This document shows, in pieces, positions 11,786-35,712 of a stretch of DNA of 40,000 nt; within the stretch, counting starts at the first letter, position 1; each line of letters starts with the position of its first letter. The stretch covers positions 166,693 through 206,692 of the forward strand of contig CAWAYK010000008.1 in assembly GCA_963786215.1 (NCBI GenBank), written 5' to 3'. Below the pieces are notes generated by a model. That model searched no databases and was not told where the DNA came from. It worked only from the letters and a program-made list of their open reading frames with translations. A program made the translations under genes and the position numbers. This DNA comes from an uncultured Acidobacteriota bacterium (GTDB lineage Bacteria > Acidobacteriota > Terriglobia > Acidiferrales > UBA7541).

Positions 11786-12367
11786 TTACCGTGAATCACT
11801 CGTTCCGGTGAGAACGTCGCCGTACCAAGGCTGCGAAAATGCGCCGGGGTGAATCACGACGCGCACGGTATCACCCGGCTCTACGGCGGAATATATGTCA
11901 TCGCTCACGTTAATATTTTCTTCGATTCGCTTGTGATACCACAACAAGTCCACGGCCAGAACGCGGCCACCCCTTTTTTGTATCGCTTTAGCGACCACGC
12001 GCGAGGGAACGCCCATCCCCGGACTGGAATCTAGTATCCCATTCAGGAAGAAATAAGCTACGGGCGCATAAAAGCTGATTGTCACCAATACAATCATCAA
12101 CCTGACATAATTCGCGTAACGCATCTGACGTTGCCCAAGCATGTGTGCAGCCGCCAACGCTGCCGATAAAAATAGAAACGGGACCGCGAAAATTCTCGGA
12201 AAATTCGATACAAGTGGAGGATATATAACGACGGCCAATAAGTTTCCAAACGCAAAGCCGACTAGTGCAACGGGGAAGCAAAGAGACACGGTTTCTTCGA
12301 TGTCGGCCTTGCGTGCAACACACTCCCGCATTTGTCGCCATCGAATTCCAGTCCACATTTGGGACAA
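11786..12367 (-). CDS. Hypothetical membrane protein
   Basis: 193-aa ORF with about three hydrophobic helices and a soluble C-terminal domain. No recognisable family. Confidence 0.45.
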   Translation of the reverse strand: MSQMWTGIRWRQMRECVARKADIEETVSLCFPVALVGFAFGNLLAVVIYPPLVSNFPRIFAVPFLFLSAALAAAHMLGQRQMRYANYVRLMIVLVTISFYAPVAYFFLNGILDSSPGMGVPSRVVAKAIQKRGGRVLAVDLLWYHKRIEENINVSDDIYSAVEPGDTVRVVIHPGAFSQPWYGDVLTGTSDSR

Positions 12368-12676
12368 ATCAAACTCGTCGAAACTGGACCTTTCGTTGCG
12401 AGATTTTCACGGGTTTGCATTGGAAGAAAAATCCTGCTCCAGAAATTGCTAATTTCGACGCTTATTTACTTGCAGCCATCGGATACGCCCACGGGTCGCG
12501 CCTTTCGTGCACTTGGATTTTCGTGCATGCCAAGTTCCATGGGCTGCGTAAGAAACATGACGTAAATATGAGGGTTACACCGGGCAGCTGTGAGAAGAAT
12601 CCGCAAGTGTGCACGAATGGAGACAACTGGCCGGATTTTTGGCCGCATCACGCATAGCCGGAATGCCCGGCCACTA

Positions 12677-13935
12677 GATAGGGCCTGATAAACGGGGCGG
12701 TCTCAATGGGTCAGTGCAACACTTGCTTGCAGTTTATCTGCAGGAGTTTGAAATCCCAAAGTTTTTCTGGGACGCTGATTTAATTGCAGCGCCACCTCGT
12801 CGAGTTCTTCTTGAGAATAGACTGACAAGTCTGTTCGTTTAGGGAAGTACTGACGCAACAGACCGTTGGTGTTTTCGTTCGAGCCGCGCTGCCAGGGGCT
12901 TTGCGGATCGCAGAAGTAGACTTTCACTTCCGTGTCCACCGTGAAGCTTTTGTGCTGGGCCATTTCCAGCCCGCGATCCCAGGTCAACGAGCGGCGCAAA
13001 GTTGCGGGCAGCTTGCCAACGTGTTGGCTCAGCGCGGCGACCACGGTCGCCGTATCTTTGCTGGGCACTTTGATCAGCATGACAAATCGCGAATGACGCT
13101 CCACGAGCGTCGCGATGTGACTGTTCTTGGTGCCGCCGATGAGGTCGCCTTCCCAATGGCCGGGGATGGCGCGATCTTCGATCTCTGCGGGCCTTTCTCG
13201 AATGGAAATGGCGTCGACGATTTGACCCTTGTGGTGCCCGCTATCCCGCGCGTGCCGCGAGCGGCGAATTCGCCGCTTGAAGCGAAGATGCTGAATCAGC
13301 TCTTTTTTCAGCACTCCGCGCGCTTGAATGAACAGGCTGCGGTAAATCGTTTCGTGCGACACGCGCATGCTCTCGTCCTCGGGATACTCACTCTTCAGCC
13401 ATCCCGGAAACTTGTTCCGGCGACCAGTCCAGGATGAGTTTACCCGCAACGATCTCTTGCAGCTTCACGTGCAGGGCAAGAAGGCAGCGCTTGGGCCGCA
13501 AGGCCGACTCCCAGGCTTGCTGATCGGCATCCGTTGCTCGATACTGAGGTCGCCCGCCATGGCGGGCGACCTCTCGGCTCACCGTCGACACCGCCCGCTG
13601 CAATCCTCTGGCTATTTCACGAATCGACGAACCGCAAGCAATCCCCGTGAAATGTTTTCCCGCTCCGCCAGCGTAAGTGTCAGCGGTGAGCGTCGCCGCA
13701 CGGCTGGAGCAATCCCGCCATGCTGCGCCAACATAAATTGAATCGACACATGATCTTTGCTGAAGGCTCGCCCAATCTCATGCAACGACTGCCCCGCCTT
13801 CCAGCGACTCCACATCTCGTTCCGCTGCTGCTCAGAAAGCTTGAACCGCCGCTTGAATCTCATCAACACCACCTTATAGAAAAAGATTTATATCAGATGG
13901 TGTTGCATCGACCGGTTGAGCTGGCAGGCCTTATC
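12677..13935 (-). mobile_element. IS30-family insertion sequence, decayed (boundaries approximate)
   Basis: Imperfect terminal IRs: gatagggcctg...ggtcagtgcaac (12677-12720) against the reverse complement of 13902-13935 (gataaggcctg...ggtcgatgcaac). The transposase stop lies inside the IR, as in IS30. Confidence 0.55.
12703..13872 (-). pseudogene. IS30-family transposase, interrupted by two frameshifts
   Basis: Three pieces in frames 0/1/0. First is the HTH part (SLHEIGRAF). Second is IACGSSIREIARGLQRAVSTVSREV...WSPEQVSG. Third is WLKSEYP...VSHETIY plus the DDE core (HWEGDLI, TWDRGLEM, QRGSNENTNGLLRQY). The frame shifts sit at C/G runs 13643-13646 and 13403-13405. Confidence 0.85.
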
Positions 13936-14057
13936 GTCATGTGGGAATTGGCGGAAAGCCAGATGACGAGACAAAAATTTGTGGGGACTTGGCCGTCGGT
14001 TGTGCTTCTGGCATTCCGTTGGTCTCTGGAGTAGGCTTATATTTTGGTGGAGAACGT

Positions 14058-14420
14058 ATGAAAACTAATTCGTTTGCGATTTTCTTGTTTGTTTTTCAGC
14101 TTTTGACGGGACCTGCGTGGGCCGATGACATCAAGGAAGCTGACTATCCCGTTCATTATGAAGTGCTCAGCGCCAGCAAGACCGACAAGGTCGTGATTCA
14201 GAAAGTCTGCTCGATGTCGCTGCGCGACCAGGCCAACCCAAACGTCATCATCACCGTATCGAGAAAGCGTATCGGGTCCTGTCCCGTTTTGCCTAGCGGT
14301 GGGGTCTATAATGGTCGGCAAAACGCGGAGAAGAATACAGTTGAACTTGTAATACTCGTTGGCGATACCAAAGCCAGAGTCGAAAGCTGGCACATCGATG
14401 CAACACTTAAGAATCCATAA
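14058..14420 (+). CDS. Small secreted hypothetical protein
   Basis: ATG 14058 after GGTGGAGA. Signal peptide MKTNSFAIFLFVFQLLTGPAWA. No recognisable family. Confidence 0.5.
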   Translation: MKTNSFAIFLFVFQLLTGPAWADDIKEADYPVHYEVLSASKTDKVVIQKVCSMSLRDQANPNVIITVSRKRIGSCPVLPSGGVYNGRQNAEKNTVELVILVGDTKARVESWHIDATLKNP

Positions 14421-15713: not shown

Positions 15714-15923
15714 ACACAGCCTGCGCAGAGTCAGATGAGCCTGGATTAGGATCGGCTGCGAACCGCCAACTAATTAATTTTCGCAACAACGCACAATTGA
15801 CTTCTGTCTGAGGTTCGGAGGATGAAGAGCACCGCGGTCTGGTCAGCTCGAAACATTTGGGGCGAGCATTTTGCCACCGGCGTATCCGAACTCTGGATAG
15901 TGGCGCATTTTGCGAGCAAATTC

Positions 15924-16069
15924 GCCCTCTCCGTCCCGAAAATCACGGGACGGAGAGGCCGCTACAAAACCGCAGTGCCTTGCAGTTGCTTTCGTAGAGG
16001 CCGCCCGACTTTTCGGGCGGGCAGCCTTTTTGCCGCAGCGCTGCAAAATTCAAATTGATGCACTACCCT
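15924..16069 (+). repeat. Extragenic repeat element, copy A (hairpins plus terminator-like 3' part)
   Basis: The last 90 nt are about 87% identical (78/90 by hand count) to 37531-37620. The final 27 nt, gcaaaattcaaattgatgcactaccct, are identical. Contains a 12-bp stem (cctctccgtccc/gggacggagagg) and a stem ccgcccga/tcgggcgg followed by ttttt. Confidence 0.6.
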
Positions 16070-16074
16070 GACTA

Positions 16075-16088
16075 TCCGAATCTTTGAC
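16075..16088. repeat. Left copy of 14-bp target-site duplication of the casposon
   Basis: tccgaatctttgac is identical to 29020-29033, in direct orientation, immediately outside the TIRs. Confidence 0.85.
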
Positions 16089-16125
16089 GGGTTAGTGTAT
16101 GGCGACGGCAAAATGCCCCCTCCCC
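16089..16125. repeat. Casposon left terminal inverted repeat
   Basis: gggttagtgtatggcgacggcaaaatgccccctcccc is the exact reverse complement of 28983-29019 (37/37). Confidence 0.9.
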
Positions 16126-16251
16126 TGCTTTCAGCGTCAATACCCTCGCGAGCGGCGATGGCGATACATAGAATTTCAGCACCCCCTACGGTATTATCGA
16201 AGTAGCAAGTCACTGTGTTATACGATATTGAATGTTAGAGGTGTGCACACA

Positions 16252-17562
16252 ATGTCGCCATTTGTGCGAGGACGTATTATCCCGGAGACCGAAAGTGCGG
16301 GTCGAGTAAAGGCGCGTCTTGACGTATTGTTATGGCTCCCTCAAATCTCCCGAGCTGACCTTGCATCGCTGGATGCTATAGAGGTCTTGCGGAGTTATCT
16401 TTCTTCGATTGACCCAATTCGTTGCTCGATCAATTTGTGGATACCTTCGTCGTTTGTTGAGGTTCATAAAGGGTTGGCTTCAATTGGGATTGAGTTCGGG
16501 GTCGTAGGGAAAGTAAATCTTTCGTCCAAGGCAACGGACGTGTTGGGAGTCAACTCCCCGCCCGAACTCCTGGAGATTGCTTCGACCGCGCTCAGCGTGG
16601 ATGCGGATGTTGTTGTTACGTCGAATCCTGATTGGTTTCCGTATGCAATGGAGCTCGAAAAAATTTATACGCTGCTTACAGATTGTCAGACTCTCAAACG
16701 TCAAGCTGAGATTTTTGTGCGGGGGCACGATGTTCCTTGGTCATTTGAGTACATCGTCTGGAGTCAAACGTGGAACGGTTTTTATCAACTAAATGAGCAG
16801 CGTACATTCAAAACGGGAGTGGATTTTTTGGCGAGCGCCCGCACGAGGCAACAGGACACGGACACTCAGGAAGCGGGACGTTCGCTCGTTCACAATTGGT
16901 TGGCAAACTTATGTTTCACAAGAGATAGGCTACTTTTTTATGATATGCAGCAGACCGTTTCGAGGCGCGTTGAGTGGGAACGCCAGGAGTTTCTCTTTGA
17001 GACAGGCTACTACCTCAATTTCTACTATTTGCTGCTTCATGGAGGGGCCGATCATCTGGCGCTTGTTGTAAATGGTGCGCTTAGTCTCGGACTCCCACCC
17101 AAGAACGTAGGTGCAACATACGCTGGATTCTTGGCCGCTTTACTCGCCAAAGCGCCTGAGATTCACGCACACTTTACGGAGCCACGATTTCTGGACTTCT
17201 TAGAAAGGGTATCGGCGTTGCGGCACTATGCTGCGCACCGTGGATCGATCGCCCCAGGTAAGATTTACGAAAAGCTTGACCCTGAGCCTACTAACGCAGA
17301 GCTAGATGCCGAGATTGGTAGGCAAGGTTTGGACTACTTCCTAGCGGCAGTTCCCGATGGACCGGTTCGCGGTGCATTCAGGGCAACGCTCAGGTATAAA
17401 ATGCTGATTTCCATGTCGAAGCTAACTGCCGAGGGCGTAGTTTTTCTAGAAATGAAAGGTAAATGGCATTACATAAGGCCGATGAGCGACATTGAGTGGA
17501 ACTTTGAACGGTTTCACCATTTCATGAGCGCCGTGCTGAAGGACCTAACAGCTAGACTCTAA
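16252..17562 (+). CDS. Hypothetical protein (436 aa) at casposon left end
   Basis: Start placed at ATG 16252 with GAGGTG 8 nt upstream; the track start at 16099 lies inside the TIR. Contains the string ALRHYAAHRG (R-x4-H). No family recognised. Confidence 0.55.
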   Translation: MSPFVRGRIIPETESAGRVKARLDVLLWLPQISRADLASLDAIEVLRSYLSSIDPIRCSINLWIPSSFVEVHKGLASIGIEFGVVGKVNLSSKATDVLGVNSPPELLEIASTALSVDADVVVTSNPDWFPYAMELEKIYTLLTDCQTLKRQAEIFVRGHDVPWSFEYIVWSQTWNGFYQLNEQRTFKTGVDFLASARTRQQDTDTQEAGRSLVHNWLANLCFTRDRLLFYDMQQTVSRRVEWERQEFLFETGYYLNFYYLLLHGGADHLALVVNGALSLGLPPKNVGATYAGFLAALLAKAPEIHAHFTEPRFLDFLERVSALRHYAAHRGSIAPGKIYEKLDPEPTNAELDAEIGRQGLDYFLAAVPDGPVRGAFRATLRYKMLISMSKLTAEGVVFLEMKGKWHYIRPMSDIEWNFERFHHFMSAVLKDLTARL

Positions 17563-17606
17563 TTTATTTTGGATAGCGCCTTTAGGAATGGTGAGACAAG
17601 TCATCA

Positions 17607-20579
17607 CTAGCTCTCCGTTGATTTGTAGCCCTCAAGCCATCGCACAAATTCGTTATACGAGTTGCGCTTCACAGGCAATCCGCGATCTAATTTCCTGACA
17701 AAATTCTTGCGATCAAACCCACTCTCGCGGGCGCATTTATTGATGCCAATGTCCCTGATGTCGCGCTTAACTTCTTCACTCGCGACAGCCTTTTTCGCTC
17801 TCCCGTACTCCGTAGTTCTGAACTCCAAGACGCTGATATCGTCGCCTTCCTCCCATTTGCGATCTGATTCTTTACCCACATAGCGGAACTCACCGGCGAT
17901 AACGTTGGTGCGCTTGAGGATTCCGGCCGTATCGGCCCGGCATTGGCTGCCATCGGGAGCAAGGCTCTTGGCTTCAGGATGCTCTTGGTACTCGATTAAG
18001 AGGCGCGCAAATTGAGAAGGAAAAACAACATTGTGTGGAGGGTTTGCTTCTTTGGTAGGGTCCACCATCCTGTACTTTTTATTTGTATGGATATTCACGC
18101 ATCTGAGGTCAAACCAGCTTTCCTGCTTCTTCAAAAATGGCGTAACCAGCAAGACTTTCTCGTCTTTACGTGTGTAAAAAGCATAGCCAAACGTTGGATC
18201 AATAATTGGCAAGAAAAGAAAATTATACGGACGAGCGATTTTCCATTCTCCGAGCATTTTCAAAACATTGTACGTAGTGATACTGAGCCGCATCATTTGG
18301 GGAAGGTCGAGCCAAGATGGGAATCTACGCTTGAGCTTGAGAGCGCCACGAATAATGTAGTCCCACATTTCGTAAATCCATTGCGGCCACATCTTCGTCC
18401 CAATTCTCCGGGGAATCTTTCGGAGGATATAGAAATCCGATGCCGTGGGCTTTGGGTCAACGATTGTAATATTCTTTGCGCCGATCTTTTCGTAAAGGGC
18501 ATAACGTTTCGCTGCAATGCTGTACCCGGACAGCTGGCGCTGTGGATTCTTCGGCTCAAAATCCACGTAGTTCGCATCCACAAGATTCAGGATCGAACCC
18601 TTAACAATCTTCCGGTTATAAGGATTTAGGGACTTGAACTGATTTGCGACAGCCCGCGCTTGAGCCCACGATAGAATTCTGACACCGCTACTGCCCGGAA
18701 TGCGGAGGGTTCCTCCATTCTTTGAGGCAACAATTGCCAGTGAATCCGTATCGCAGAACAGATAAGTGCCCTTCTTCTGCGTAACACGCGCTTCGGCCAT
18801 TGCAAGAAGCAGCCGACCTGAGGAGGTAATAAGCGAAGCTAAGGGCGGGAAGAACCAAGGTCCCGGATTTTCGATCAAGTCTGAACTCTCGACAACTTTC
18901 TTTTCGCCTGAAAATACATAGTTACTGGCACAGTCTTATTCAGAATTTCTGGATTTAGTTCAACGAAAAATCCATAAATCGAATTCGCAAGAATCTTGAG
19001 CCAATAATAGAGTGCCTCGTCTGATTTGTTCAGTTTGCGTTGCTCAATTATTTTGCGGAACAGATCATCCTTGTACGGATCAACGGTCACCATGCCACGA
19101 AGATTTACCGTCTCCATTCCTGCCTGCTTACCACGCGGCACCATGCGGATAGCCCGAATGATGTGCGGCACTTTACCTGTTCGGATTACAGATGCAATCA
19201 GGTCGGGGCCAGCAAACCACAACGGTGTATCTGACGTCAGATAGTTGTTGCCGATATTTTGAGTGATCCCGTTGTACACAGTGCGGACGGGTAGATATGT
19301 CGCCGTCAGGTTTCACGAGCGCAAAGAATTTGGCCTGCTTCCACATACCTCGTTTGAAACATCGCTGTAGGTTAATGCGCTTCAGGAATTTGCGGACGCT
19401 TTCTGTGTCACGGGTGAACTTCACACTTCGTGCCGTCAGCACATCGAAAAGACCAAGCAGAGCACAACAGCTTGGATATTGACTCGTGAAATCCACTGGT
19501 ACGACCGGAACTGCTGCACATCGCACACGAGTCTCGGAGCGACCTCCGTAATAGCTTTGCATCGCGATACCGAGCACCTTTTCAGGGATGTTGAATTTTA
19601 ATGCTGGCCTCGTGATCCCCATCGTGTCCAAATAAGACTTGGCTATAGATGCAGGAGAGTAGGCGCTGTACGGTTTTAAGTCGATTGGGTGTTTGTCGAA
19701 TTCCCGCTTTAGCGCATTAAGCACGTCTACGGTGCAGCGAGCGTCCTGCCGGGCATATTCGATTTCTTCAGGCGTAATTGTTCCGGTCGGTTCGTGGTCA
19801 AGTTTTTGATGTTCGGTTTTGAGTTCCTCACAAGCCGTCTTGAGCGAAAGCGGCATATTGAAGAGCGCCCATCCCAGCGTGCGAAGATCGAGGAATGGAA
19901 CATTACCATTGTTTTCCCATTCTTCCGGCTTCCACGGCTTTGCCAGTTTGATGAATGCTTTTTTGCTATCTATGGGCGTAATAAGGACCCGAGGACGGTT
20001 GCGGTTTTCGGTTCCGTCTGCATATTCGGACAATATCAGTGACCATTCATCCTTTTCGCTCCTGCTCCATTTCATGGCCAGGCGAGATAGATCGAAAGGC
20101 AGATTCAGGCCACAGATCAAAGCGCCATTGCGCTTAATTGACGGCCAGAACACCCTTTTCATGAATTCGGAGCGGGAATACAGTGGGAATCGCGGCGGAA
20201 AAGACGCTACATCCGAAACAGCGGTACGTACGTAGGCCTGAAGTAGCTTTCGCTCTTTCGGAGGTAAGTTGTCGGCGTAGAAGATACCCTCTTCCGTGAC
20301 CTTGTAAATCCCTTTTATTCGCTCGCAGCAGCGATACACGCCAAAAGTTAGAGATTGATCCACGGTAATGCGCGTTTCAGTGTCGAATACGAGCGCATGC
20401 TTTGGCCACTTGGCACGAAAATAACGCCTCGGCGTTCTCTGCTTTTTCTGCTTTTTGGAAACTAAGTATGCTCGAAGAAAAATGTCATGGCGGAGTCCCG
20501 ACGCAGATTGTTCAGAATTGAATTCACGGTTGAGTTTTCCTCTAACGTTCGTGTCGATACTTGATTTAGTCGAGGCCAT
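17607..20579 (-). pseudogene. polB: Family B DNA polymerase, split into three pieces by two frameshifts
   Basis: Exo I FDTET, Exo II LNLPFDLSRL, Exo III YARQDARCTVD and motif A DFTSQYPS lie in 19173..20579. Motif B KILANSIYG lies in 18875..19279. Motif C LFCDTDS and the KxY motif AAKRYALY lie in 17607..18878. The frame changes near 19291-19303 and somewhere within 18878-18935. Confidence 0.85.
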
Positions 20580-20883
20580 TGTTCTCGTTGAAGATTATTG
20601 CTTCATCAATGTGCCATAACAAGACGTACGCTGCCATCCGCGCACGCCTTGCGCGTTCGGCGAGATTACTGGTGTATTGCATATTCACGCCTGCTCGCGC
20701 AATGGCGATGGTGACTGCCTCGTGATGACGACGGCAGAGCGGGATTGTGAAAAAGGCGGCATGCTTCCGCCCACCAAGATGGTGCTCTTCAATCTCGTTT
20801 ATTGACCCGCAGATTGCGCAGCGCCGGACACGAGGTTGTTTTGTGCCTATGGCGCACGGACGCCTGTGCCGCAATCTACTCAC
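20566..20883 (-). CDS. HNH-like zinc-finger nuclease candidate
   Basis: CAICGS...IEEHHLGGRKH...LCRRHHEAV pattern. The GTG start overlaps the upstream stop (GTGA), and the 3' end overlaps the polB start by 14 nt. Confidence 0.55.
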   Translation of the reverse strand: MSRLRHRRPCAIGTKQPRVRRCAICGSINEIEEHHLGGRKHAAFFTIPLCRRHHEAVTIAIARAGVNMQYTSNLAERARRARMAAYVLLWHIDEAIIFNENNGLD

Positions 20884-21509
20884 GCCGCCCCACCCGAGAG
20901 CGAGCGGTAGAGGGAATAAGGAAGTAATTCGTCTTGAGCTAGCTTTTTAAGAGTTTGCCGGTCGGTTACAAGTTCAACCCCGGCGATCTTCTTTCCGCGC
21001 CATGGATCAAGCGCCTTAAGGTCCCCGCCTAAAAATCTGTTGACGGCAGCTTTGTATCTGGCAACCTCAGTCGCTTCTTTTGACCCATGCGCCTTTATTT
21101 CGACTGAACCGTTCGGACTCGGAATTTGTAAGTACCGGACAAATCGGTCACTCTTGGTCGGACGGATTCGTCCGCCTGGGCGCTTTTGGATGAGCGCTGT
21201 CCCAACATATTTCTTAATCGTCCGTATAGTAACGCTGTTGGCTCGCGCGGCCTCCGAAACGGAAGCTCCGTGCCGCATATCGTTCAGAGCATGGAGGGAT
21301 CGCTCACGAGCAGAAGAGCTGCGCTCAATGGTTTGTGAGCCACGAACAATGTGAGCTTTGTTCGATTTGGAGTGTCGCTTGCGCATAGGTATTGAAAGGC
21401 GTTTGCGAGAAACGCTTAAGCGTGAGCCCTTACGCAGTGTAGCTTTTCGTTTGCGCTGGCGCGATTTGGGTCTATTATTCTTCTTCATCTGCTTGCCTAC
21501 GCCGCTCAC
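20880..21509 (-). CDS. Basic HTH DNA-binding protein
   Basis: Lys/Arg-rich N-terminus, then an HTH-like segment GASVSEAARANSVTIRTIKKYVG. First gene of the minus-strand operon HTH-HNH-polB. Confidence 0.55.
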   Translation of the reverse strand: MSGVGKQMKKNNRPKSRQRKRKATLRKGSRLSVSRKRLSIPMRKRHSKSNKAHIVRGSQTIERSSSARERSLHALNDMRHGASVSEAARANSVTIRTIKKYVGTALIQKRPGGRIRPTKSDRFVRYLQIPSPNGSVEIKAHGSKEATEVARYKAAVNRFLGGDLKALDPWRGKKIAGVELVTDRQTLKKLAQDELLPYSLYRSLSGGAA

Positions 21510-21572
21510 ATTACTTCAATTCATTTGCACGGCTAACGTCAGTGAGCGTGAGTCGCAACGCCAGTTCCCCGG

Positions 21573-21617
21573 TTCATGGGTAATGGGCACAAAGCACTGA
21601 GCAATTCATGGGTAATG
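21573..21617. promoter_or_regulatory. Pair of 13-bp direct repeats in the divergent intergenic region (candidate operator)
   Basis: ttcatgggtaatg occurs at 21573-21585 and 21605-21617, spaced 32 bp start to start, between the divergently transcribed 20880..21509 and 21637..22950. Confidence 0.3.
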
Positions 21618-21636
21618 AGGCGGATTCAGGGGTGAA

Positions 21637-22950
21637 TTGGTGCGAACAAAAAATCATCCGGCTAAAGCACGGAGGCCGAGGAACTCTACTCGCCAAGCCG
21701 ATACGAGTGGAACTCTCGACAATCCGTTTTCAATATTCAACGAAGGTCCGGGTAATCCTAGCCTTCGAAAAGACTATCTTCTTCAGCGGCGAGACGACTT
21801 CATTTGCTTACTTGAGCCCGTCTGGTATGAATTTGGTTGGGAGTTAAAATGCGCACGAACATCCGAACAAGTTCGCCAAGCGTTTCAAAAGCTGGCTGAA
21901 AACGTGAATTCTAGCCGTCTTATGCCCATGTTAAGAGCCACGGCTGAGCCCGCGACCAAGGCGACGATTGAGAGTACGCGTCGGATGTACGCCCTTTGCG
22001 TTGAGAAGTCGAGATCGTTATCGACACGGCACCAAGCACAACTCCAGATTTTTGAGGAATGCCAGAGATCGAACCATGTTTTGAGCAATGCGTTTAAGGA
22101 AGCACTCGAAAGAGACTTAATGGGGCGTAAAGAGAATATTCGAGCAATTAAAATTGCCATCTCTACCCAGAGAGGCAATATTCGGAAAGCACAGTTGCAA
22201 AGGAACGCGAAACCATCAGAGTCTGAACCGAAGGTTCCTGCGCTAGAAAGTGCGTTGAACAGCCTTCAGCGCGATCTTGCCGCAGACGAGGATGTCTGTC
22301 GTAATCTTGAGAAGCGAATACGGTCAATCACCAAAGAATCCCGCAGGGTCATAGCAGAAGAAACGGTACGTCAAAAGGGAAAGCTAGATTCTCTGGAGCA
22401 AGAGTTGAGGAAGGCAGATTTGGAGTGCCGCAAATTCGAAACAACGCTCCTGGATCAAGAAGCCTTTTTCTTTAGAAGTCAGCTTTTGGACTTCATAAAG
22501 AAGGTAGATTACGAGTTCACTCCGAGAAATGTGGCGAATGCCCTCGCAGGCTTGCCCTATATCACGAGCCGCCGATCCGCAGAGCTTTGTTCCACGATGA
22601 AAAGTAAAATTGCACTCTCTGGAAGTTACGAGTTGCTGATGTTCATTTCATCGGTTTGGAAACGATATGACACGAGTGCAAATCTTACGGTGACCGAGTG
22701 GTTCAAACTCAAGATCATAGAACTGCCGAGGTACAGGATAATTAATAAGAAAAAGATGGACAATTATTTCCGAACCAATCTGGCGGGAAAGTGGTTTTTT
22801 CTACGGCGGGCATTGGTGATCTTTCAAAGATCGAAGCTACCCCCAGGTTTCGTGCCCTACGCAATTACGCGGGAGTTTCTAAGGCAGTCAGTTAACCCGG
22901 AATCACCAGCCGATTCAATCTTGGCGGCAACCAACAAGATCACGGACTAA
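21637..22950 (+). CDS. Hypothetical protein, basic N-terminus and long charged helical region
   Basis: 437-aa ORF with a TTG/GTG start. The central segment is rich in E/K/R/L/Q heptad-like sequence. No family recognised. Confidence 0.5.
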   Translation: MVRTKNHPAKARRPRNSTRQADTSGTLDNPFSIFNEGPGNPSLRKDYLLQRRDDFICLLEPVWYEFGWELKCARTSEQVRQAFQKLAENVNSSRLMPMLRATAEPATKATIESTRRMYALCVEKSRSLSTRHQAQLQIFEECQRSNHVLSNAFKEALERDLMGRKENIRAIKIAISTQRGNIRKAQLQRNAKPSESEPKVPALESALNSLQRDLAADEDVCRNLEKRIRSITKESRRVIAEETVRQKGKLDSLEQELRKADLECRKFETTLLDQEAFFFRSQLLDFIKKVDYEFTPRNVANALAGLPYITSRRSAELCSTMKSKIALSGSYELLMFISSVWKRYDTSANLTVTEWFKLKIIELPRYRIINKKKMDNYFRTNLAGKWFFLRRALVIFQRSKLPPGFVPYAITREFLRQSVNPESPADSILAATNKITD

Positions 22951-23108
22951 TCTCCAAGCGTGCGAGCATATCATCAACTAGGCGAAAGACAGGCTATTTC
23001 ATTCTGTTGTCTTTGGCAGGTAAATGTTAGAATAGCAATGACTTAAGCGGGCTGCCCGCCTGTTTCAGCAGACGAAGCAGCCCTAACCACCATGGAGGTG
23101 AAGCTCCA

Positions 23109-24632
23109 ATGGCAGATTCGCTCACCCTACCGTATTTCCATTATGTCCGCAATTCTGGCGTTCTCGTTTTAAGTGGATATGGTGTTCGCGTGCAAGTCAA
23201 CGCTGGTCACTTGGTCGCTCATGACGGGATAGCGGACGAGCGGAGGAACATTCGCCTGCCTCGCGTGGCCAACGGGCTGCGAAGACTAGTGATAATTGGG
23301 AGCGATGGGTTCATCACTCTTGAGGCTCTCCGTTGGATTTCTGATGTGGGGGCTGCCTTCGTTATGCTCGAAAAAGACGGCTCTGTGGTCGTCACGACTG
23401 GCCCGGTATATCCGTCCGATGCACGGCTAAGGCGTTCTCAATCTCTTTCAAGTACAAATGGAATGGCGTTGGAGATTTCCAAGAATTTGATTCGGCAAAA
23501 AATGATTGCTCAAGAACAAATTGCTAAAGAAAAACTGAATGCTTGCTCAGTGGCACATTTAATTGCTGATATTCGTGCAGCCGTTAATTCTGCAAGAAAC
23601 ATTGATGAGCTTCGCCGTTTTGAATCACAGGCTGCATATTCCTACTGGTCTGCATGGCGCAACGTATCGATAATCTTCCCGAAAAAGGATATTCCGCGCG
23701 TGCCAGACCACTGGCAGCGCTTTGGAGCGAGAGTCTCCCCGTTAACGGGATCACCTCGTCTTGCCGCGAATCCCATGAACGCAATGCTCAACTATTTGTA
23801 CGCAGTTCTTGAATCAGAAGCTCGCCTCGCCGCTGCCGCACTCGGTCTTGATCCGGGCATCGGGGTGATGCATGTTGACACACCTTCTCGCGACAGTTTG
23901 GCCTGTGATTTGATGGAGCCACTTCGTCCTCAAGTTGACGCATATGTCCTAGACTGGATTAGTCGCGAACCAATCCGCCGCGAATGGTTCATTGAGCAAA
24001 GAGATGGAAATTGTCGGTTAATCGCTTCCTTTGCCGCTCGGCTCACGGAGACTGCACCTTCGTGGGCTCGCGCCCTAGCGCCAATCGCCGAAATGGTTGC
24101 GCGTACTTTTTTGTCTACCGTCAAGAAGCAAATTCGTTCGGGTCTACCGCCAACACGGCTAACACAAAACCAGCGACGTGAAGCGACAGGATTCTCGCCG
24201 GAGATTCCAGCGAAAGCGTCAGTCAAGCCGACCCGTATTTGTCGTAATTGTGGCGTAGTCCTCTATCGTGGCAAAACCCACTGTGCCGCTTGTGCCGTTC
24301 CGGTTTCTAAGGAGAGATTTGCTGAGGTGGCACGACAAGGGCGTGCAGCTTCGCATAGTCATGATGCAGAGATCAGCCGTGCGGAGACGCAACGTAGACA
24401 TAAAGCAGCTGTTCGTGCCTGGCTACCCTCTGAACAGCCTGAATGGCTGAATGAGGACGCTTACCGGACAAAGATTCAACCCGTCCTTTCAGAAATGACG
24501 GTTCCAGCGATATCTTCCGCGCTTGGCATCTCGCAACCTTATGCCACCGACATTCGCGCTGGGCGGCGCCGACCGCATCCAAGACATTGGCGGTCGCTGG
24601 CGCAATTAGTTGGAGTTTCGCCGGATGAGTGA
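23109..24632 (+). CDS. cas1: Cas1-like integrase (casposase) with C-terminal zinc ribbon and HTH
   Basis: RBS GGAGGTG. Cas1 blocks are present: LVIIGSDGFITLEALRWISDVGAAFVMLEKDG, ESQAAYSYW and NAMLNYLYAVLESEARLAAAALGLDPGIGVMHVDTPSRDSLACDLMEPLRPQVD (an E...H...D/E triad pattern). The C-terminus has CRNCG...CAAC and an HTH-like segment ISSALGISQPYATDIRAG. Confidence 0.85.
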   Translation: MADSLTLPYFHYVRNSGVLVLSGYGVRVQVNAGHLVAHDGIADERRNIRLPRVANGLRRLVIIGSDGFITLEALRWISDVGAAFVMLEKDGSVVVTTGPVYPSDARLRRSQSLSSTNGMALEISKNLIRQKMIAQEQIAKEKLNACSVAHLIADIRAAVNSARNIDELRRFESQAAYSYWSAWRNVSIIFPKKDIPRVPDHWQRFGARVSPLTGSPRLAANPMNAMLNYLYAVLESEARLAAAALGLDPGIGVMHVDTPSRDSLACDLMEPLRPQVDAYVLDWISREPIRREWFIEQRDGNCRLIASFAARLTETAPSWARALAPIAEMVARTFLSTVKKQIRSGLPPTRLTQNQRREATGFSPEIPAKASVKPTRICRNCGVVLYRGKTHCAACAVPVSKERFAEVARQGRAASHSHDAEISRAETQRRHKAAVRAWLPSEQPEWLNEDAYRTKIQPVLSEMTVPAISSALGISQPYATDIRAGRRRPHPRHWRSLAQLVGVSPDE

Positions 24633-24779
24633 ATCAGTTGAGCGGAGTTGCCGCTGTGTGCTAGGCGTTGCTGGATCAGGTGCGCTCGACTAATTTCCGA
24701 AAGGACCATCTAATGTGGGGAATCGGGCGAAGTCTTGCCCCCGTTCCGCAAAAGCTGGATATCGGAGTCCGATTGTTGT

Positions 24780-25712
24780 ATGCTTGCGGCGATGAATATC
24801 CGCGCCTACAGGTCGGTAACTCCCGCAATTCGTTCCATCAAGAGCGGCACGCCGACAGTGTTGTTCACTGGCGACTGCGTAGAACTTATCAGACGTGTGC
24901 CCGACGGTTCGATTGATCTCACAATTACGTCTCCGCCCTACTGCATGGGCAAGGAGTATGAGACATCAAATTCTATTGAGGATTTCATCGCTGCTCACAA
25001 GGTTATATTGCCGGAGATAGTCAGAATCACTCGCGATGGAGGCAGCATTTGCTGGCAGGTTGGCTACCACGTCGCAAAACAATGTGTATATCCGCTGGAC
25101 TATCCCGTGTTTGCGATTCTCGCTGGGATTAAAGATATTGTCCTGCGGAATCGAATTGTCTGGGCATTCGGACACGGCTTTCATGGAACGTCTCGCTTCA
25201 GCGGGAGACACGAAACAATACTTTGGTTTACTAAGGGTCTAGATTACCACTTTGATCTTGATGCAGTCCGTGTGGCGCAAAAATATCCGGGAAAGCGGCA
25301 CTATAAGGGGCCTCACAAGGGAGAATTTAGCGGTAATCCCAAGGGTAAGAATCCGGGGGACGTGTGGGATATCCCAAACGTAAAGGGCAATCACATCGAA
25401 AAGCTCGACCATCCATGCCAATTTCCTGTTGGGATCGCGGAACGTTTAGTGCGTGCATTGTGCCCCAAAGACGGCATTGTTTTTGATCCCTATATGGGAT
25501 CTTCCTCAACAGGAGTCGCGGCGATTATTAACCGTCGCCGTTTTCTTGGAGCCGAACTCAACGAGAAGTACGAAGCCCTTGCATACGCAAGACTGCTGAA
25601 GGCGCATAACGGAACTGTGAGATTCAGACCTGCCGAGCGGCCCCTGTATCTTCCCAGTTCGGGAGACACGGTGGCGCGCCGCCCGGATCACTTTGTGGAG
25701 GTTTTTCAGTGA
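24780..25712 (+). CDS. Beta-class DNA methyltransferase (N4-C/N6-A family, SPPY motif IV)
   Basis: Motif IV, DLTITSPPY, precedes motif I, FDPYMGSSSTGVAA (beta-class order). Start placed at ATG 24780; the track TTG at 24735 is also possible. Confidence 0.85.
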   Translation: MLAAMNIRAYRSVTPAIRSIKSGTPTVLFTGDCVELIRRVPDGSIDLTITSPPYCMGKEYETSNSIEDFIAAHKVILPEIVRITRDGGSICWQVGYHVAKQCVYPLDYPVFAILAGIKDIVLRNRIVWAFGHGFHGTSRFSGRHETILWFTKGLDYHFDLDAVRVAQKYPGKRHYKGPHKGEFSGNPKGKNPGDVWDIPNVKGNHIEKLDHPCQFPVGIAERLVRALCPKDGIVFDPYMGSSSTGVAAIINRRRFLGAELNEKYEALAYARLLKAHNGTVRFRPAERPLYLPSSGDTVARRPDHFVEVFQ

Positions 25713-26791
25713 GCGCAAAGAGGAAGGCGCAAACTCAGAAAAGCGTCAAGAAGCATACAGGCCGCGTCGGGCATCCGCTCACATTCGCTGCTCTGGAAGT
25801 AGTCCAAATGAATACAAAGCTGTACGTATTTAAGGCAAAAGCATCCACTCTGTTTGGCTCGCTATCAATCAACCGCCGAATTGAAGATAAAGATGTGGGT
25901 TATCAACGCACCCTATCGCCATCGCGTGTTCAGGCAATCACTCGCTACATCACACAGAAAAGACCCATTCCAGGCGCAGTAATTGTCTGCTTAGATAAGG
26001 CGACGTTCGATAGCAGGAAAAGCGAAATTACGATTCCCGCCGGAACTGACGTAGGGTGGGTCATCGATGGACAACATCGCTTGGCTGGAGCTGAAGAGGC
26101 CGCTCGCCTTGGGACTGATGTTGAGCTTCCCGTCGTTGCATTTCTCGATCTCTCCAAGGAGAAACAGATTGAGCAATTTGTGACCATTAATAGGGAAGCA
26201 AAGAACGTGCCCACCTCTCTTTACCTGGATCTGCTGCGTGAGCTACCGGCAAGTAAGAATCCTGCGGAAGTAGCAAAAGAACGCGCGGCAGACATAGCCA
26301 CACAGCTTCGCCGAGATGAGCACTCTCCGTTTTACGAAAAAATCGTCGTGGCAACCAGTCCAAAGGCCGGACAACTTTCCCTTACTAATTTCGTGAGAAA
26401 GATTTCACCATTAGTCACGCCGGAAAAAGGAATGCTGAGTGAATACACAGAATGGGAGCAACAATCGATAATTTCAAACTACTATAAGGGGCTGCACCAA
26501 GTGTTCCAGGGCGAGTTTGAAGCGAAGGAGAGCATATTCTTCAAGACTATCGGCTTTGGCGCTTTGTGGAATGTATTCCCAGTGTTTTTCAATCTAGCGT
26601 TGAAGAATCAGCAGGGGTTCGAAGTTAAAGATGTGATAGCTATTTTCAAGCGTATAGAAAATGTTGACTTTTCGGGGTGGAGGCAGATGGGTTCCGGAAA
26701 CCAAGCCGAGCAGATCGTTGGAGATGATCTGAAAACGTCGCTGCGGATCGCCTTCAAGGAAGACAGCAAACCTGGAACACTTAGAGTGTGA
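25709..26791 (+). CDS. DGQHR domain protein (DndB-like, ParB/Srx superfamily)
   Basis: VIDGQHRLAG plus the upstream GYQRTLSPSRVQAITRYI block. The GTG start overlaps the methyltransferase stop (GTGA). Confidence 0.8.
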   Translation: MSAKRKAQTQKSVKKHTGRVGHPLTFAALEVVQMNTKLYVFKAKASTLFGSLSINRRIEDKDVGYQRTLSPSRVQAITRYITQKRPIPGAVIVCLDKATFDSRKSEITIPAGTDVGWVIDGQHRLAGAEEAARLGTDVELPVVAFLDLSKEKQIEQFVTINREAKNVPTSLYLDLLRELPASKNPAEVAKERAADIATQLRRDEHSPFYEKIVVATSPKAGQLSLTNFVRKISPLVTPEKGMLSEYTEWEQQSIISNYYKGLHQVFQGEFEAKESIFFKTIGFGALWNVFPVFFNLALKNQQGFEVKDVIAIFKRIENVDFSGWRQMGSGNQAEQIVGDDLKTSLRIAFKEDSKPGTLRV

Positions 26792-26799
26792 ATATCTAG

Positions 26800-27717
26800 A
26801 TGTCGCTAAGACCTAAATTGCAGAATTTCCGTGAACGCAACTGGAAAGAAGTGCGGGACTCCTGGCTTGGACACATTCCAAATTTCCAAAGCGCTGGCGC
26901 TCGACCTGATCCAGGTCTTGAGCGGCTTCAGCCGTTGTTGGACCTCGTTTTGCCACGAGATAATGGTCGGTTTTCTGATATCGATGGCCTAAGGGAGATG
27001 ATGCTATGGGAAGCGGTATTTCTATTTCACAAGTGTTCCCATACAAACTTAGCGGCACAGCGTCTTGGAAGCCAAGGAATGCAAAGCTGGTGTCTGTTTA
27101 ATGCTTATCATTCGGCGTACTTAGGCGCACGGGGGATAATGGCTTTGCTTGGAGTAGCATTGCCAGAACTTAAAGGCCACCAAGTTGCGATTGATATTTA
27201 TCCCGAGCCCATGAAAAAGAGGAAGACCATCCGACCTCTCGGTTCGTCGCAATTCCAAGAATTTGTAATTGTTCCATTGGCACCTTTGGATCAACGTGAT
27301 CTTTGGGAGGCATTTCAGCGAGTAATAAATATGTCCAATGCCACCTGTTGGGACGTGGGTATCCGCCAAGAACTTCTTGATCTCGCCCATCAGAAGATCA
27401 CGCCCCCCAGGAATCGGTTCCTCTATAGGTCGAATCATTGGCCATTGACCGACCTTATTTCAGATGTGCAACCTTCAGATTTGACAGGCTTCGTCGGAAC
27501 GGAGCTTAACGCGGAGGATACAGGATTCCTGTTGAGATTGAGCTTTTCCGTGTACCGGTTGTTTCAGCAATTGATGAGCGACCTCGCGAGCTACTCCGCA
27601 GTCATAAAAACGCAGCTAGACGCCTCTAGGTGTCAGGTTGAATCTGAAGCACTCGACCTCGTTTCCTATAGAAATTTCGTATCCCAGATGAATGCCCGAA
27701 CTGAAGGTCTAAGGTGA
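26800..27717 (+). CDS. Hypothetical protein (305 aa), third gene of the cargo operon
   Basis: The ATG lies 8 nt after the DGQHR stop. No family recognised by eye. Confidence 0.55.
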   Translation: MSLRPKLQNFRERNWKEVRDSWLGHIPNFQSAGARPDPGLERLQPLLDLVLPRDNGRFSDIDGLREMMLWEAVFLFHKCSHTNLAAQRLGSQGMQSWCLFNAYHSAYLGARGIMALLGVALPELKGHQVAIDIYPEPMKKRKTIRPLGSSQFQEFVIVPLAPLDQRDLWEAFQRVINMSNATCWDVGIRQELLDLAHQKITPPRNRFLYRSNHWPLTDLISDVQPSDLTGFVGTELNAEDTGFLLRLSFSVYRLFQQLMSDLASYSAVIKTQLDASRCQVESEALDLVSYRNFVSQMNARTEGLR

Positions 27718-28056
27718 AGAGGAATCAAGGCGATAGAGAGTGCCTGAATGAAGCCTACGCCAGCGCCGATTGTAACTGGTGAAACTCTACACATATGCTT
27801 ACCAGTTCGCGCGCATCCTTTATGGGCCAAATATCGCGTCTTCAGCTCCCAAAGTTCGCTTGTAACGATTCCGGTATGCGGATGGCGCGCACACATGTCG
27901 CAAAAGGATGATTAGCATTACCTTCGGGACAAGAAGCACATTTCCCTTTCTACCATTTCAGCGAGGATATAGCAGGCACCTTAAATACAATGCCGGCTGC
28001 CCTCTCACCAGGGAGCCCGCTTGTGAGACCAGAGTCGCTCGGCGCATAATTGTGGG

Positions 28057-28881
28057 ATGAGCTGTTTACCACGATCTGGCGGCTGCGAGAAGCCACTCAC
28101 TGACGCATTCGCGAATCATCTAAACGAAGCGGAAGGCGCTCGCTTTGTCCATCGGACCTGTTTGGATATTGCCGATAGACAGAATCCTCAACCTGAGGCT
28201 TTGTACGTGGATTCAGGGAATAACATTGAACTCGTCATCGAGAGAAAGTCGATTTCTTCACCAGTTGATTTTGTTCACAGACACAGCAATGACCACTTCG
28301 TTTCCGAACTTTTTGAGGCAAAGCTGAAGGACCTTCCGTTCGATGACCTCTATGAAATAGGCCTTCCGATGCTGATAAGCGGAACTCAACCACAATTGCG
28401 CGCATTTGTATTGGCAGCAGTTCAAAGTATTCGATCGCATTGGCCGATCGCAGAAGGAATGGTTCTCAAGTCGCGTCCCGGCAAAAGGTGGTGGTCGTAC
28501 AAAAGAGTTCCCGAGTGGAACAGATTGGACGGTGCTCCGAGCAAGGGTTTGCAATTCACATGGTCAGAGCCGCCCACAAGTCAGCCGGATTGTATCGACG
28601 CCGCAAATCCTCCACAACATATCGCTTTTGCTTTGCAGAACATCTATTCAAGCTGTGTGAAGAAATTTGCTACTTATCCCAATGCAAGGCGAATCCTTGT
28701 GCTTGATCCGTACGGAGAATTGAGATACCAGAACGCAGACTGGTGGCGTGATCTGTTCTCCGTCCTACCACCTCCGACCGAGATCGAAGAGATATGGTCA
28801 GGTATGTTCGATTGGATTACAGAGAAATCGGAGGGATGGACTTTTGAACGTCTACACTGTCAGAATGACGTGATTGCGTAG
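28057..28881 (+). CDS. Hypothetical protein (274 aa) with D-x9-ExK string
   Basis: Intact ORF near the right TIR. YVDSGNNIELVIERKS resembles a PD-(D/E)XK core, but this is only a motif-level hint. Confidence 0.45.
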   Translation: MSCLPRSGGCEKPLTDAFANHLNEAEGARFVHRTCLDIADRQNPQPEALYVDSGNNIELVIERKSISSPVDFVHRHSNDHFVSELFEAKLKDLPFDDLYEIGLPMLISGTQPQLRAFVLAAVQSIRSHWPIAEGMVLKSRPGKRWWSYKRVPEWNRLDGAPSKGLQFTWSEPPTSQPDCIDAANPPQHIAFALQNIYSSCVKKFATYPNARRILVLDPYGELRYQNADWWRDLFSVLPPPTEIEEIWSGMFDWITEKSEGWTFERLHCQNDVIA

Positions 28882-28982
28882 GGCAAAGATCCCGTCCCCA
28901 CGCTTCTCCTTCAGCCCCTCCGCCCCGCACGCACGCTATCCCGCCCATCGCCGCTCTTCATTGGCAACCAGCGCTTAAGTGG

Positions 28983-29019
28983 GGGGAGGGGGCATTTTGC
29001 CGTCGCCATACACTAACCC
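28983..29019. repeat. Casposon right terminal inverted repeat
   Basis: ggggagggggcattttgccgtcgccatacactaaccc is the exact reverse complement of 16089-16125. Confidence 0.9.
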
Positions 29020-29033
29020 TCCGAATCTTTGAC
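29020..29033. repeat. Right copy of 14-bp target-site duplication
   Basis: tccgaatctttgac is identical to 16075-16088. Confidence 0.85.
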
Positions 29034-29064
29034 TACCGCTTCTGCTGCGCTTACACTTGCGAGG

Positions 29065-35459: not shown

Positions 35460-35580
35460 TTGCGGAGCATTTTGCAGAGAGAACTTGGGATTGTGGGGAA
35501 GAGAAATAGAATTAGAAAAATGCAAAAAGTTAATCTGCGATGTAGAGCAACGCAAGATTGTAATTGACTAGAAAAAGAAA

Positions 35581-35712
35581 ATTGAAATCTAAAACCTCAA
35601 ATTTGAAATCCCAAATTTCAAAACTCAAACCTGACTTTCAAAATTTCAAATCTCAAATGTGAAATTTCAAATTACGATTTACAAATCACGAGTCACAATT
35701 CACCAATCACAT
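35581..35712. repeat. AT-rich degenerate short-repeat tract (caaattt/gaaat and aatcac units)
   Basis: Visible reiteration of tcaaatttgaaat-like and caaatcac-like units between two convergent genes. Confidence 0.5.

Follow-up and report, generated by a model that had tools for sequence, protein, structure and literature searches.

The window analysed here is a stretch of 40,000 nucleotides (nt) from an uncultured Acidobacteriota bacterium (contig CAWAYK010000008.1, positions 166,693 to 206,692), and it carries what is very probably a casposon, of 12,931 bp (16089-29019), delimited by terminal inverted repeats (TIRs). The left TIR, which begins GGGTTAGTG (16089-16136, plus strand), pairs with the right TIR (28972-29019, minus strand): once reverse-complemented, 28983-29019 is identical to 16089-16125 at all positions (37/37), and the inverted repeat reaches 48 nt at 90%. 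The 14-mer TCCGAATCTTTGAC abuts both ends in direct orientation as two identical copies (16075-16088 and 29020-29033), a match (14/14) whose probability of arising by chance at a fixed position is about 4e-9. With a 27-nt probe from the TIR terminus and up to three mismatches, the two ends of the element were the sole matches in the window and no match was obtained in 100 shuffles. Both the perfect 37-bp TIRs and the 14-bp target site duplication (TSD) had been described in a previous reading of these letters alone (the sequence-only reading), and they are present in the sequence as it described them. Casposons have TIRs at both ends and typically a TSD of 14-15 bp; the element has TIRs at both ends and a TSD of 14 bp. 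A stretch left of the element that resembles a TIR end (16059-16068) was considered as a solo TIR and rejected, since it is also present in a related contig devoid of the element and is thus host sequence.

The element encodes an intact casposase of 507 aa (23109-24632, plus strand) in which a Cas1 domain is fused to a zinc ribbon and a C-terminal helix-turn-helix (HTH) domain. On the minus strand, it carries (i) a gene for a family-B DNA polymerase (PolB) with a C-terminal HTH-like tail (17607-20579), (ii) an open reading frame (ORF) for a small, putative HNH-type nuclease of 105 aa (20566-20883) with a CxxC...HH...CxxHH motif, and (iii) an ORF for a conserved core protein of 209 aa, orf209 (20880-21509), with an HTH-like stretch, SVSEAARANSVTIRTIKKYV, recognised by inspection only. 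A search of species-representative genomes with an alignment-based profile found 407 loci encoding a relative of the window Cas1; comparisons of related loci were drawn from the best 80 of these, of which 79 were compared. The order PolB(-), HNH(-), orf209(-), Cas1(+) is conserved in about 70 of the 79 loci, orf209 being kept at the same position in 58 and the HNH ORF adjoining PolB in 28 (tblastn). An HNH-like ORF and an HTH ORF had both been announced inside the element, and ORFs of this description are there. The first has weak matches only (DUF968, RecA_dep_nuc and HNH families of PHROG), and the second has no profile match in Pfam and NCBIfam searches. On the evidence presented below, 16089-29019 is very probably a family-3 (bacterial) casposon located in the chromosome of a probable member of the Terriglobia (Acidobacteriota), a host assignment drawn from relatives of the element and of the rhomboid locus beside it and not from a marker gene.

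The 507-aa ORF had been proposed to encode a Cas1-like integrase, and the profile searches suggested at that time bear this out: it matches Cas_Cas1 of Pfam (1.5e-39) and scores 113.6 bits against TIGR00287 of NCBIfam (cut-off 71.7 bits), and its catalytic residues E172, H255, D267 and E270 are invariant in 20 relatives. The Cas1 domain spans approximately residues 18-312, the zinc ribbon (CxxC-x10-CxxC) residues C378-C395 and the C-terminal HTH approximately residues 462-507 (HTH_31 of Pfam). This HTH was examined with Pfam for likeness to sigma region 4 and gave HTH_31 and HTH_3 only. The best sequence match in the PDB is 6OPM (2e-19), a casposase structure of family 2.

The window Cas1 was compared by blastp with the reference sequences that Krupovic et al. 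2014 had aligned (PMC4046053, Additional file 2). The top five matches are the five family-3 references: AceAut-C1 (43% identity), S. spinosa (37%), StrAlb-C1 (34%), NitAL212-C1 (33%) and HenMar-C1 (34%), with E-values from 7.5e-71 (AceAut-C1) to 1e-39. Family 2 follows with 25-31% identity (E 1e-31 to 5e-21) and family 1 with about 23% (E 2e-16 to 3e-13), while Cas1 proteins of CRISPR systems have E-values of 1e-11 or worse, their identity not being comparable. A Cas1 phylogeny had also been called for; in a neighbour-joining (NJ) tree of trimmed sequences (200 bootstraps), the protein groups with casposases and not with CRISPR Cas1, within an acidobacterial clade (100%) that joins all of family 3 (68%) as sister to AceAut-C1 (48%). 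From its sequence, the element thus appears to belong to family 3, closest to AceAut-C1, as a distinct and tight acidobacterial subclade and not as a new family. The sequence-only reading had suggested that the element could extend the host range of casposons or define a distinct family: the former stands as far as the searchable literature goes, and the latter, at the level tested, does not, given the position within family 3 and the 43% identity to AceAut-C1.

An alternative to a mobile element is that the locus derives by decay from a CRISPR adaptation module, or is a cas1-polB island that has become domesticated and fixed. Source databases indeed label homologues of the window protein "CRISPR-associated endonuclease Cas1", and TIGR00287 matches. 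However, subtype-specific Cas1 models of NCBIfam score far below their cut-offs on the window protein, which clusters with casposases. No CRISPR-like interspaced repeats, Rfam match or tRNA were found in the 40-kb window, and no Cas2 match was obtained with Pfam and NCBIfam among the larger ORFs scanned, small ORFs across the window not having been scanned. The sequence-only reading had seen no CRISPR array or cas2 in the window, which agrees with our searches for the array and, among the larger ORFs scanned, for Cas2. Its own grounds for refutation, a failure to match Cas1 profiles or a place inside CRISPR-associated Cas1 clades beside an array, were not borne out. A CRISPR module is also at odds with the TIRs, the TSD, an empty site in a related contig and copies at many different loci, and we consider this explanation very improbable.

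The polymerase shows all the expected Exo and Pol motifs, as had been claimed: Exo I FDTET, Exo II NLPFDLSRL, Exo III YARQD, Pol A DFTSQYPS, Pol B KILANSIYG and Pol C FCDTDS. The family-B polymerase expected of a casposon is therefore recognisable from its motifs, though the window gene is interrupted by two frameshifting insertions and its motifs are distributed over three reading frames (19173-20579, 18875-19279 and 17607-18878). Aligned with the DNA of five intact homologues, the window gene shows a single-base insertion at about 19296 and a two-base insertion at about 18920-18921; the two insertions are 376 nt apart, and the 125 codons between them, which include motif B, are out of frame. 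Profile and sequence searches say little of this protein: matches to DNA_pol_B_2 of Pfam are sub-threshold in 11 of 16 PolB homologues, a PDB search with a single PolB sequence gave no matches, and a PDB profile search gave marginal matches to Pol alpha (E ~0.005). An AlphaFold model of an intact homologue (P0127; mean predicted local distance difference test score, pLDDT, 66.8) was then used for a fold search against the PDB, in which the top 50 matches were all family-B polymerases (probability 1.00), led by Pol alpha, herpes simplex virus (HSV) polymerase, Pol zeta, E. coli Pol II and RB69. Pol alpha, HSV polymerase, E. coli Pol II and RB69 polymerase are primer-dependent enzymes.

These matches bear on the hypothesis that the element is of another PolB-carrying kind, be it a pipolin or a prophage-like element that relies on a recombinase of the tyrosine or serine type, and merely carries a Cas1 gene. 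Family-B polymerases, together with methyltransferases and other defence cargo, are likewise encoded by pipolins and some prophages, but the fold matches are led by primer-dependent enzymes, and no tyrosine recombinase, serine recombinase or DDE transposase was found in 16089-29019 with Pfam and NCBIfam, nor any capsid or other PHROG match. Furthermore, the boundaries are TIRs with a 14-bp TSD and not att direct repeats at a tRNA gene. We give this hypothesis hardly any credit.

Because PolB is interrupted by the +1 and +2 insertions, the window copy may not be autonomous: either it depends on another copy or the assembly carries two indel errors. If both indels are genuine, the copy would be a dead, non-autonomous relic that has lost self-replication. 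For such a relic speak the comparison with five intact homologues, which puts motif B out of frame, the position of the two indels, neither of which lies within a long homopolymer, and the polB genes with stop codons reported in Methanosarcina casposon copies (PMC4779613). Against it, the perfect TIRs (37/37), the TSD (14/14) and the other ORFs, which are open, argue for a recent insertion, and many PolB homologues from long contigs are frameshifted at varied positions, as long-read indel errors would give. On balance, a relic is a serious candidate to which we give slightly less than even weight. Intact PolB (>=880 aa) is encoded by 51 of 70 related loci. Many database homologues from long contigs end early by frameshift, at scattered positions; out-of-frame tails are frequent in such sequences (P0132, P0126, P0145, P0154 and P0183), and in P0132 two internal frameshifts fall between motifs A and B, the region that is also affected in the window gene. 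This pattern reflects either long-read indel errors or a frequent and real inactivation of casposon PolB. Programmed frameshifting was considered and rejected, the indels being absent from the five close homologues and the truncation points scattered.

The casposon is inserted in an intergenic region, between terminator-like hairpins and the promoter of a rhomboid protease gene, with genes for a histidine kinase, the rhomboid protease and a pyruvate kinase as flanking genes. Metagenome contigs were scanned with the neighbouring rhomboid protein, which yielded 80 orthologous loci (72-97% identity). In one of them (L090), the left flank of the window (hairpins, 15920-16030) and its right flank (promoter and rhomboid gene) are contiguous without the element, and the 14-mer is present as a single copy, TCCGAAGCTTTGAC. 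Since this related contig has an empty site with one 14-mer, the element is an insertion and not a fixed locus. The sequence-only reading had proposed a search for such an unoccupied site and had named a conserved non-mobile locus as the alternative to a casposon; the empty site of L090 contradicts this alternative. Members of the family are found at about 20 different loci. The two GC-rich terminator-like hairpins just left of the insertion site (15923-15961 and 16003-16030) are both kept at the empty site, where an extra hairpin insert of about 60 nt separates them from the target.

This work also revealed that the group of casposons to which the element belongs is large and apparently undescribed in soil Acidobacteriota. 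More than 120 clusters of relatives of about 510 aa (58-87% identity) are found in the protein database, mostly labelled "CRISPR-associated endonuclease Cas1" in the source databases. The best 80 of the 407 loci come almost all from metagenome-assembled genomes of Acidobacteriota, with hosts assigned to Terriglobia, Acidobacteriaceae, Candidatus (Ca.) Sulfotelmatobacter and Ca. Acidiferrales, and one host each to Bryobacterales and Vicinamibacterales. A search for exact 14-bp direct repeats abutting inverted repeats identified 35 complete related elements (7.6-17.5 kb), with exact 14-bp TSDs and termini that are all of the GGG(N)TA type, a terminus shared with the window TIR and with the family-3 element NitAL212-C1. 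One contig (L044, CAVXKJ010000003.1) is labelled "Candidatus Micrarchaeota archaeon"; it encodes a casposase 57% identical to that of the window and an acidobacterial-type core, and is probably mis-binned rather than derived from an archaeal host. In L063 (4028-18904), short pieces of about 224-238 bp, each with a different TIR type at its boundaries, lie to the left and right of a complete casposon whose TSD is CTTTCTGGTTTGAC, and a second 14-bp duplication, GTCAAACCCGGGGA, encloses the entire structure. Such an arrangement suggests miniature TIR-only derivatives, or a nested or tandem insertion.

The right copy of the window TSD ends with TTGAC, and these 5 nt are the -35 element of a predicted sigma-70-type promoter, TTGACT-17-TACACT (29029-29057, plus strand; promoter scan), of the rhomboid gene. 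The same holds for related elements. When 33 TSDs were oriented alike (several sites are orthologous and form about 20 independent groups), all 33 ended with TTG(A/T)C (31 TTGAC and two TTGTC), and the flank past the TSD carried TA(n)A(c)T 17-18 nt further on. TAnnnT is found at this spacing in 31 of the 33 sites, compared to 5.3% of all 2,893 TTGAC sites of the same loci and 14% of the intergenic ones, targets included. The corresponding binomial P is 1.5e-37 against the rate of all sites and 3e-24 against the intergenic rate; for the independent groups (18 of 20), it is 2e-21 and 1e-13, respectively. Because nearly all TSDs end with TTGAC and 31 of 33 are followed by TAnnnT 17-18 nt later, the target appears to be a sigma-70-type promoter, its function being predicted from the sequence. 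In terms of cuts, the comparison of the 33 insertions places one staggered cut directly after the TTGAC of the -35 hexamer and the other 14 bp upstream. The -35 box is part of the duplicated segment, so that the insertion leaves the promoter of the downstream gene complete. The target genes lie on the same strand, with starts 2-150 nt further downstream, and include valS (four loci), a gene for a protein of about 600 aa (nine loci), the rhomboid gene (three loci) and, once each, genes for a thiolase, NuoB (nuoB), a LytTR regulator, a Ser/Thr kinase, a TolC-like protein and an oxidoreductase. Relative to the promoter, the element occurs in both orientations, which is what symmetric ends should give.

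The rhomboid promoter is used repeatedly. In about 37 of 78 orthologous rhomboid loci, a casposon terminus lies exactly 14 nt before the end of TTGAC, the other loci being empty, and at least five TIR types occur there, one of which is that of the window (L135). The ORF at 29029-29859 matches Rhomboid of Pfam; its ATG (29065) lies 7 nt past the -10 element, and the promoter and ATG are kept in 46 orthologous loci (among L080-L158) with a spacing of 7-8 nt. An ATG so close to the -10 element suggests that the rhomboid mRNA is leaderless. The listed start of this ORF, a TTG at 29029 that falls within the duplication, is probably not the true one. At the same promoter, L104 (737-3077) and L110 (282-2313) carry elements of 2.0-2.3 kb with casposon TIRs and a near-identical 14-bp duplication; since they are too small for Cas1 and PolB, they are probably internally deleted, non-autonomous derivatives. 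The sequence directly upstream of the TSD is often another casposon TIR end (...ACCCC), as in L002 (158-176) and many other loci, which suggests that solo TIRs or casposons in tandem occupy one and the same promoter, in a layout that recalls repeat-spacer arrays. Tandem arrays or solo TIRs were likewise described for Methanosarcina casposons (PMC4779613). A hybrid inward promoter, made of the TTGAC of the left TSD and an A-rich tract of the TIR, was also envisaged and dropped, as no consistent -10 was found at the right spacing across TIR types.

The association with promoters could reflect survival rather than recognition: a casposase needing TTGAC or less would integrate widely, and selection would purge the other insertions. 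The sample consists only of fixed insertions in assembled genomes, insertions inside genes are often deleterious and the invariant portion of the site is just 5 nt, all of which fit such a filter. However, harmless intergenic TTGAC sites without a -10 element should then persist as targets, yet 31 of 33 sites have TAnnnT compared to at most 14% of intergenic sites (targets included). Moreover, no insertion into a non-essential gene was seen, and the same rhomboid promoter was used at the same nucleotide by elements with at least five TIR types. Survival as the sole cause seems rather unlikely to us. We lean instead, without strong conviction, towards active recognition by the acidobacterial casposases of the sigma-70 promoter architecture (-35 TTGAC and -10 at 17-18 nt), or of the promoter bound by RNA polymerase, with integration exactly at the -35 box.

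A mechanism of integration can be proposed by analogy with characterised casposases. The Cas1-ZnR-HTH casposase (ZnR, zinc ribbon) would bind the GGGnTA termini of the TIRs and, as in families 1 and 2 and in Cas1-Cas2, would connect the 3' end of each TIR with one of two phosphates in the target that are separated by 14 bp. The boundary next to the recognised flank, at the C of TTGAC, would be attacked first, and the position of the second attack would be set by the spacing of the active sites; gap repair by the host would then generate the 14-bp duplication, these steps again being modelled on known systems. More speculatively, the promoter could be read by the zinc ribbon/HTH, by the 209-aa protein or through DNA bound by RNA polymerase, and PolB, the HNH protein and the 209-aa HTH-like protein, which form the conserved core, would presumably serve in replication and excision. 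What the compared sequences do show is where the element ends, a stagger of 14 bp, where the cuts fall with respect to the promoter, independence from orientation and reuse of sites.

Several points weigh against the reading of 16089-29019 as a family-3 casposon targeting a promoter: (i) its integration chemistry is borrowed from families 1 and 2, no activity of a family-3 casposase having been demonstrated; (ii) the placement in family 3 comes from an NJ tree of trimmed sequences and has moderate support (68%, and 48% for AceAut-C1 as sister); (iii) the PolB gene of the window is not intact; (iv) the HNH assignment and the HTH assignment of orf209 are weak; (v) several of the 33 target sites are orthologous, leaving about 20 independent groups; and (vi) the promoter is predicted, not measured. 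In vitro integration of TIR-ended DNA has been demonstrated for family 1 and family 2 enzymes only (PMC5137440, PMC8464041, PMC6977970).

Compared with the described members of family 3 (AceAut-C1, NitAL212-C1, StrAlb-C1 and HenMar-C1; Krupovic et al. 2014, 2016), the window element shares a bacterial host, an intergenic insertion, a size of 12-20 kb with variable cargo including DNA methyltransferases, and, probably, a PolB of the primer-dependent type accompanied by a putative HNH nuclease and a putative HTH protein. AceAut-C1, whose Cas1 is 43% identical, has the same fusion of Cas1, zinc-binding domain and C-terminal HTH, and NitAL212-C1 has TIRs beginning with GGGGTA and a 14-bp TSD. The differences concern (i) the hosts, Acidobacteriota here and Proteobacteria, Actinobacteria and Ca. 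Acetothermia for described members, (ii) the number of elements, the window group forming its own tight clade with hundreds of members whereas the literature counts "a handful" of bacterial casposons, and (iii) the target, -35 TTGAC and -10 at 17-18 nt for the window group whereas the TSD of NitAL212-C1, AGCCGGTACTGCCC, lacks this motif.

Family 2, considered through Aciduliprofundum boonei, Methanosarcina mazei and the structure 6OPM, resembles the window group by its casposase with a C-terminal HTH, its TSD of 14-15 bp and its core of PolB, HNH and HTH proteins. Its sequence-specific target likewise consists of the duplicated segment and a one-sided, adjacent "leader-like" determinant, and repeated and tandem insertions occur at the same site. 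However, its hosts are archaea, its Cas1 proteins are 25-31% identical to that of the window, it inserts at tRNA genes (at their 3' ends) or at specific intergenic sites and not at promoters, and no zinc ribbon between Cas1 and HTH is reported in the literature examined. CRISPR Cas1-Cas2 is a homologous integrase that also makes a staggered attack on a segment of fixed length, which is duplicated (the repeat corresponding to the TSD); the flanking sequence on one side, the leader, sets the site, and successive insertions at this site build arrays. In contrast, the window has no array or effector genes and no Cas2 match among the ORFs scanned, the inserted DNA is a 13-kb transposon with TIRs, and the "leader" is the promoter of a host gene that reads away from the insertion. 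Tn7-like elements, which use attTn7 downstream of glmS, also choose a conserved "safe" position that spares the neighbouring gene and build islands by repeated occupation. Nevertheless, the Tn7 transposase (TnsABC+D) is unrelated to Cas1, its TSD is of 5 bp, and Tn7 has a fixed orientation and one site per genome, whereas a class of promoters is used here.

Casposons in general and family 3 in particular were already known; what is new is the host phylum, the abundance and the target rule. In the searchable literature, subscription-only papers being outside the search, no link between casposons or casposases and Acidobacteriota was found other than incidental, nor any description of promoter targeting by casposons. 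Bacterial casposons were reported from "only a handful" of genomes and as "inserted within intergenic regions" (PMC4779613). The acidobacterial clade has hundreds of members in an abundant soil phylum, many with intact genes, exact TIRs and 14-bp TSDs, and thus offers a rich comparative set and candidate active enzymes. If our reading holds, Terriglobia would surpass by far every other known reservoir of bacterial casposons. To our knowledge, no family-3 casposon has been studied biochemically.

The CRISPR adaptation machinery presumably descends from casposons. The target rule, which can be tested in vitro and comes with both orientations, repeated promoters and tandem arrays, bears on how Cas1-family integrases choose their sites and on the tie between CRISPR integration and the leader, as well as on how compact bacterial genomes can harbour large transposons and still express the genes next to them. 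If promoters are indeed actively recognised, this would be (i) a generic, natural "promoter-homing" specificity for a Cas1-family integrase and the first defined target rule for bacterial casposons, (ii) a new class of safe-site selection, in which the host promoter is preserved through duplication, and (iii) a concrete model for an ancestral casposon integrating beside a leader-like element. It should also be emphasized that, casposases being labelled as CRISPR Cas1 in public databases, the prevalence of CRISPR estimated from cas1 in soil Acidobacteriota is inflated.

Apart from its core, the element carries genes that are not conserved among the 79 related elements. Downstream of the casposase gene and on the plus strand are found genes for a type II-like N6/N4 DNA methyltransferase (24735-25712; N6_N4_Mtase 1.2e-48, PADLOC MTase_II 1.8e-65) and a DGQHR-domain protein related to DndB/DpdB (25709-26791; DndB 9e-16, TIGR03187 DGQHR 1e-42, DpdB 2.6e-28), followed by two ORFs of unknown function (26800-27717, 305 aa, and 28057-28881, 274 aa) that have no Pfam, NCBIfam, PHROG or PADLOC match. 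This set (24735-28881) looks like a module for DNA modification or defence, and none of the 79 related elements examined has it. Close to the left end, a third plus-strand ORF of unknown function (16252-17562) has no match in the same four databases and no homologue in the 79 loci; its listed start (16099) is inside the TIR, and ATG 16252 is the likely start. The methyltransferase, the DGQHR protein and these three ORFs are cargo specific to this copy. Upstream of cas1, an ORF of 437 aa and unknown function (21637-22950, plus strand) has a weak match to the ATG16 coiled coil only, and distant homologues are found at the same position in 15 of the 79 loci.

Two further features of the window were noted outside the casposon. 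About 2.6 kb to its left, the minus strand carries an insertion sequence (IS)-like gene (region 11786-13449) in which Pfam recognises the rve integrase core domain (12703-13449, 2.4e-12); overlapping short ORFs in three frames at 13367-14420 have no Pfam matches and bring no information on assembly frameshifts in host genes. To its right, an intergenic A/T-rich tandem array (35564-35699) has a period of 7 nt, with units resembling AAATTTC/AAATCTC, and was detected as a spacing of 14/21 nt.

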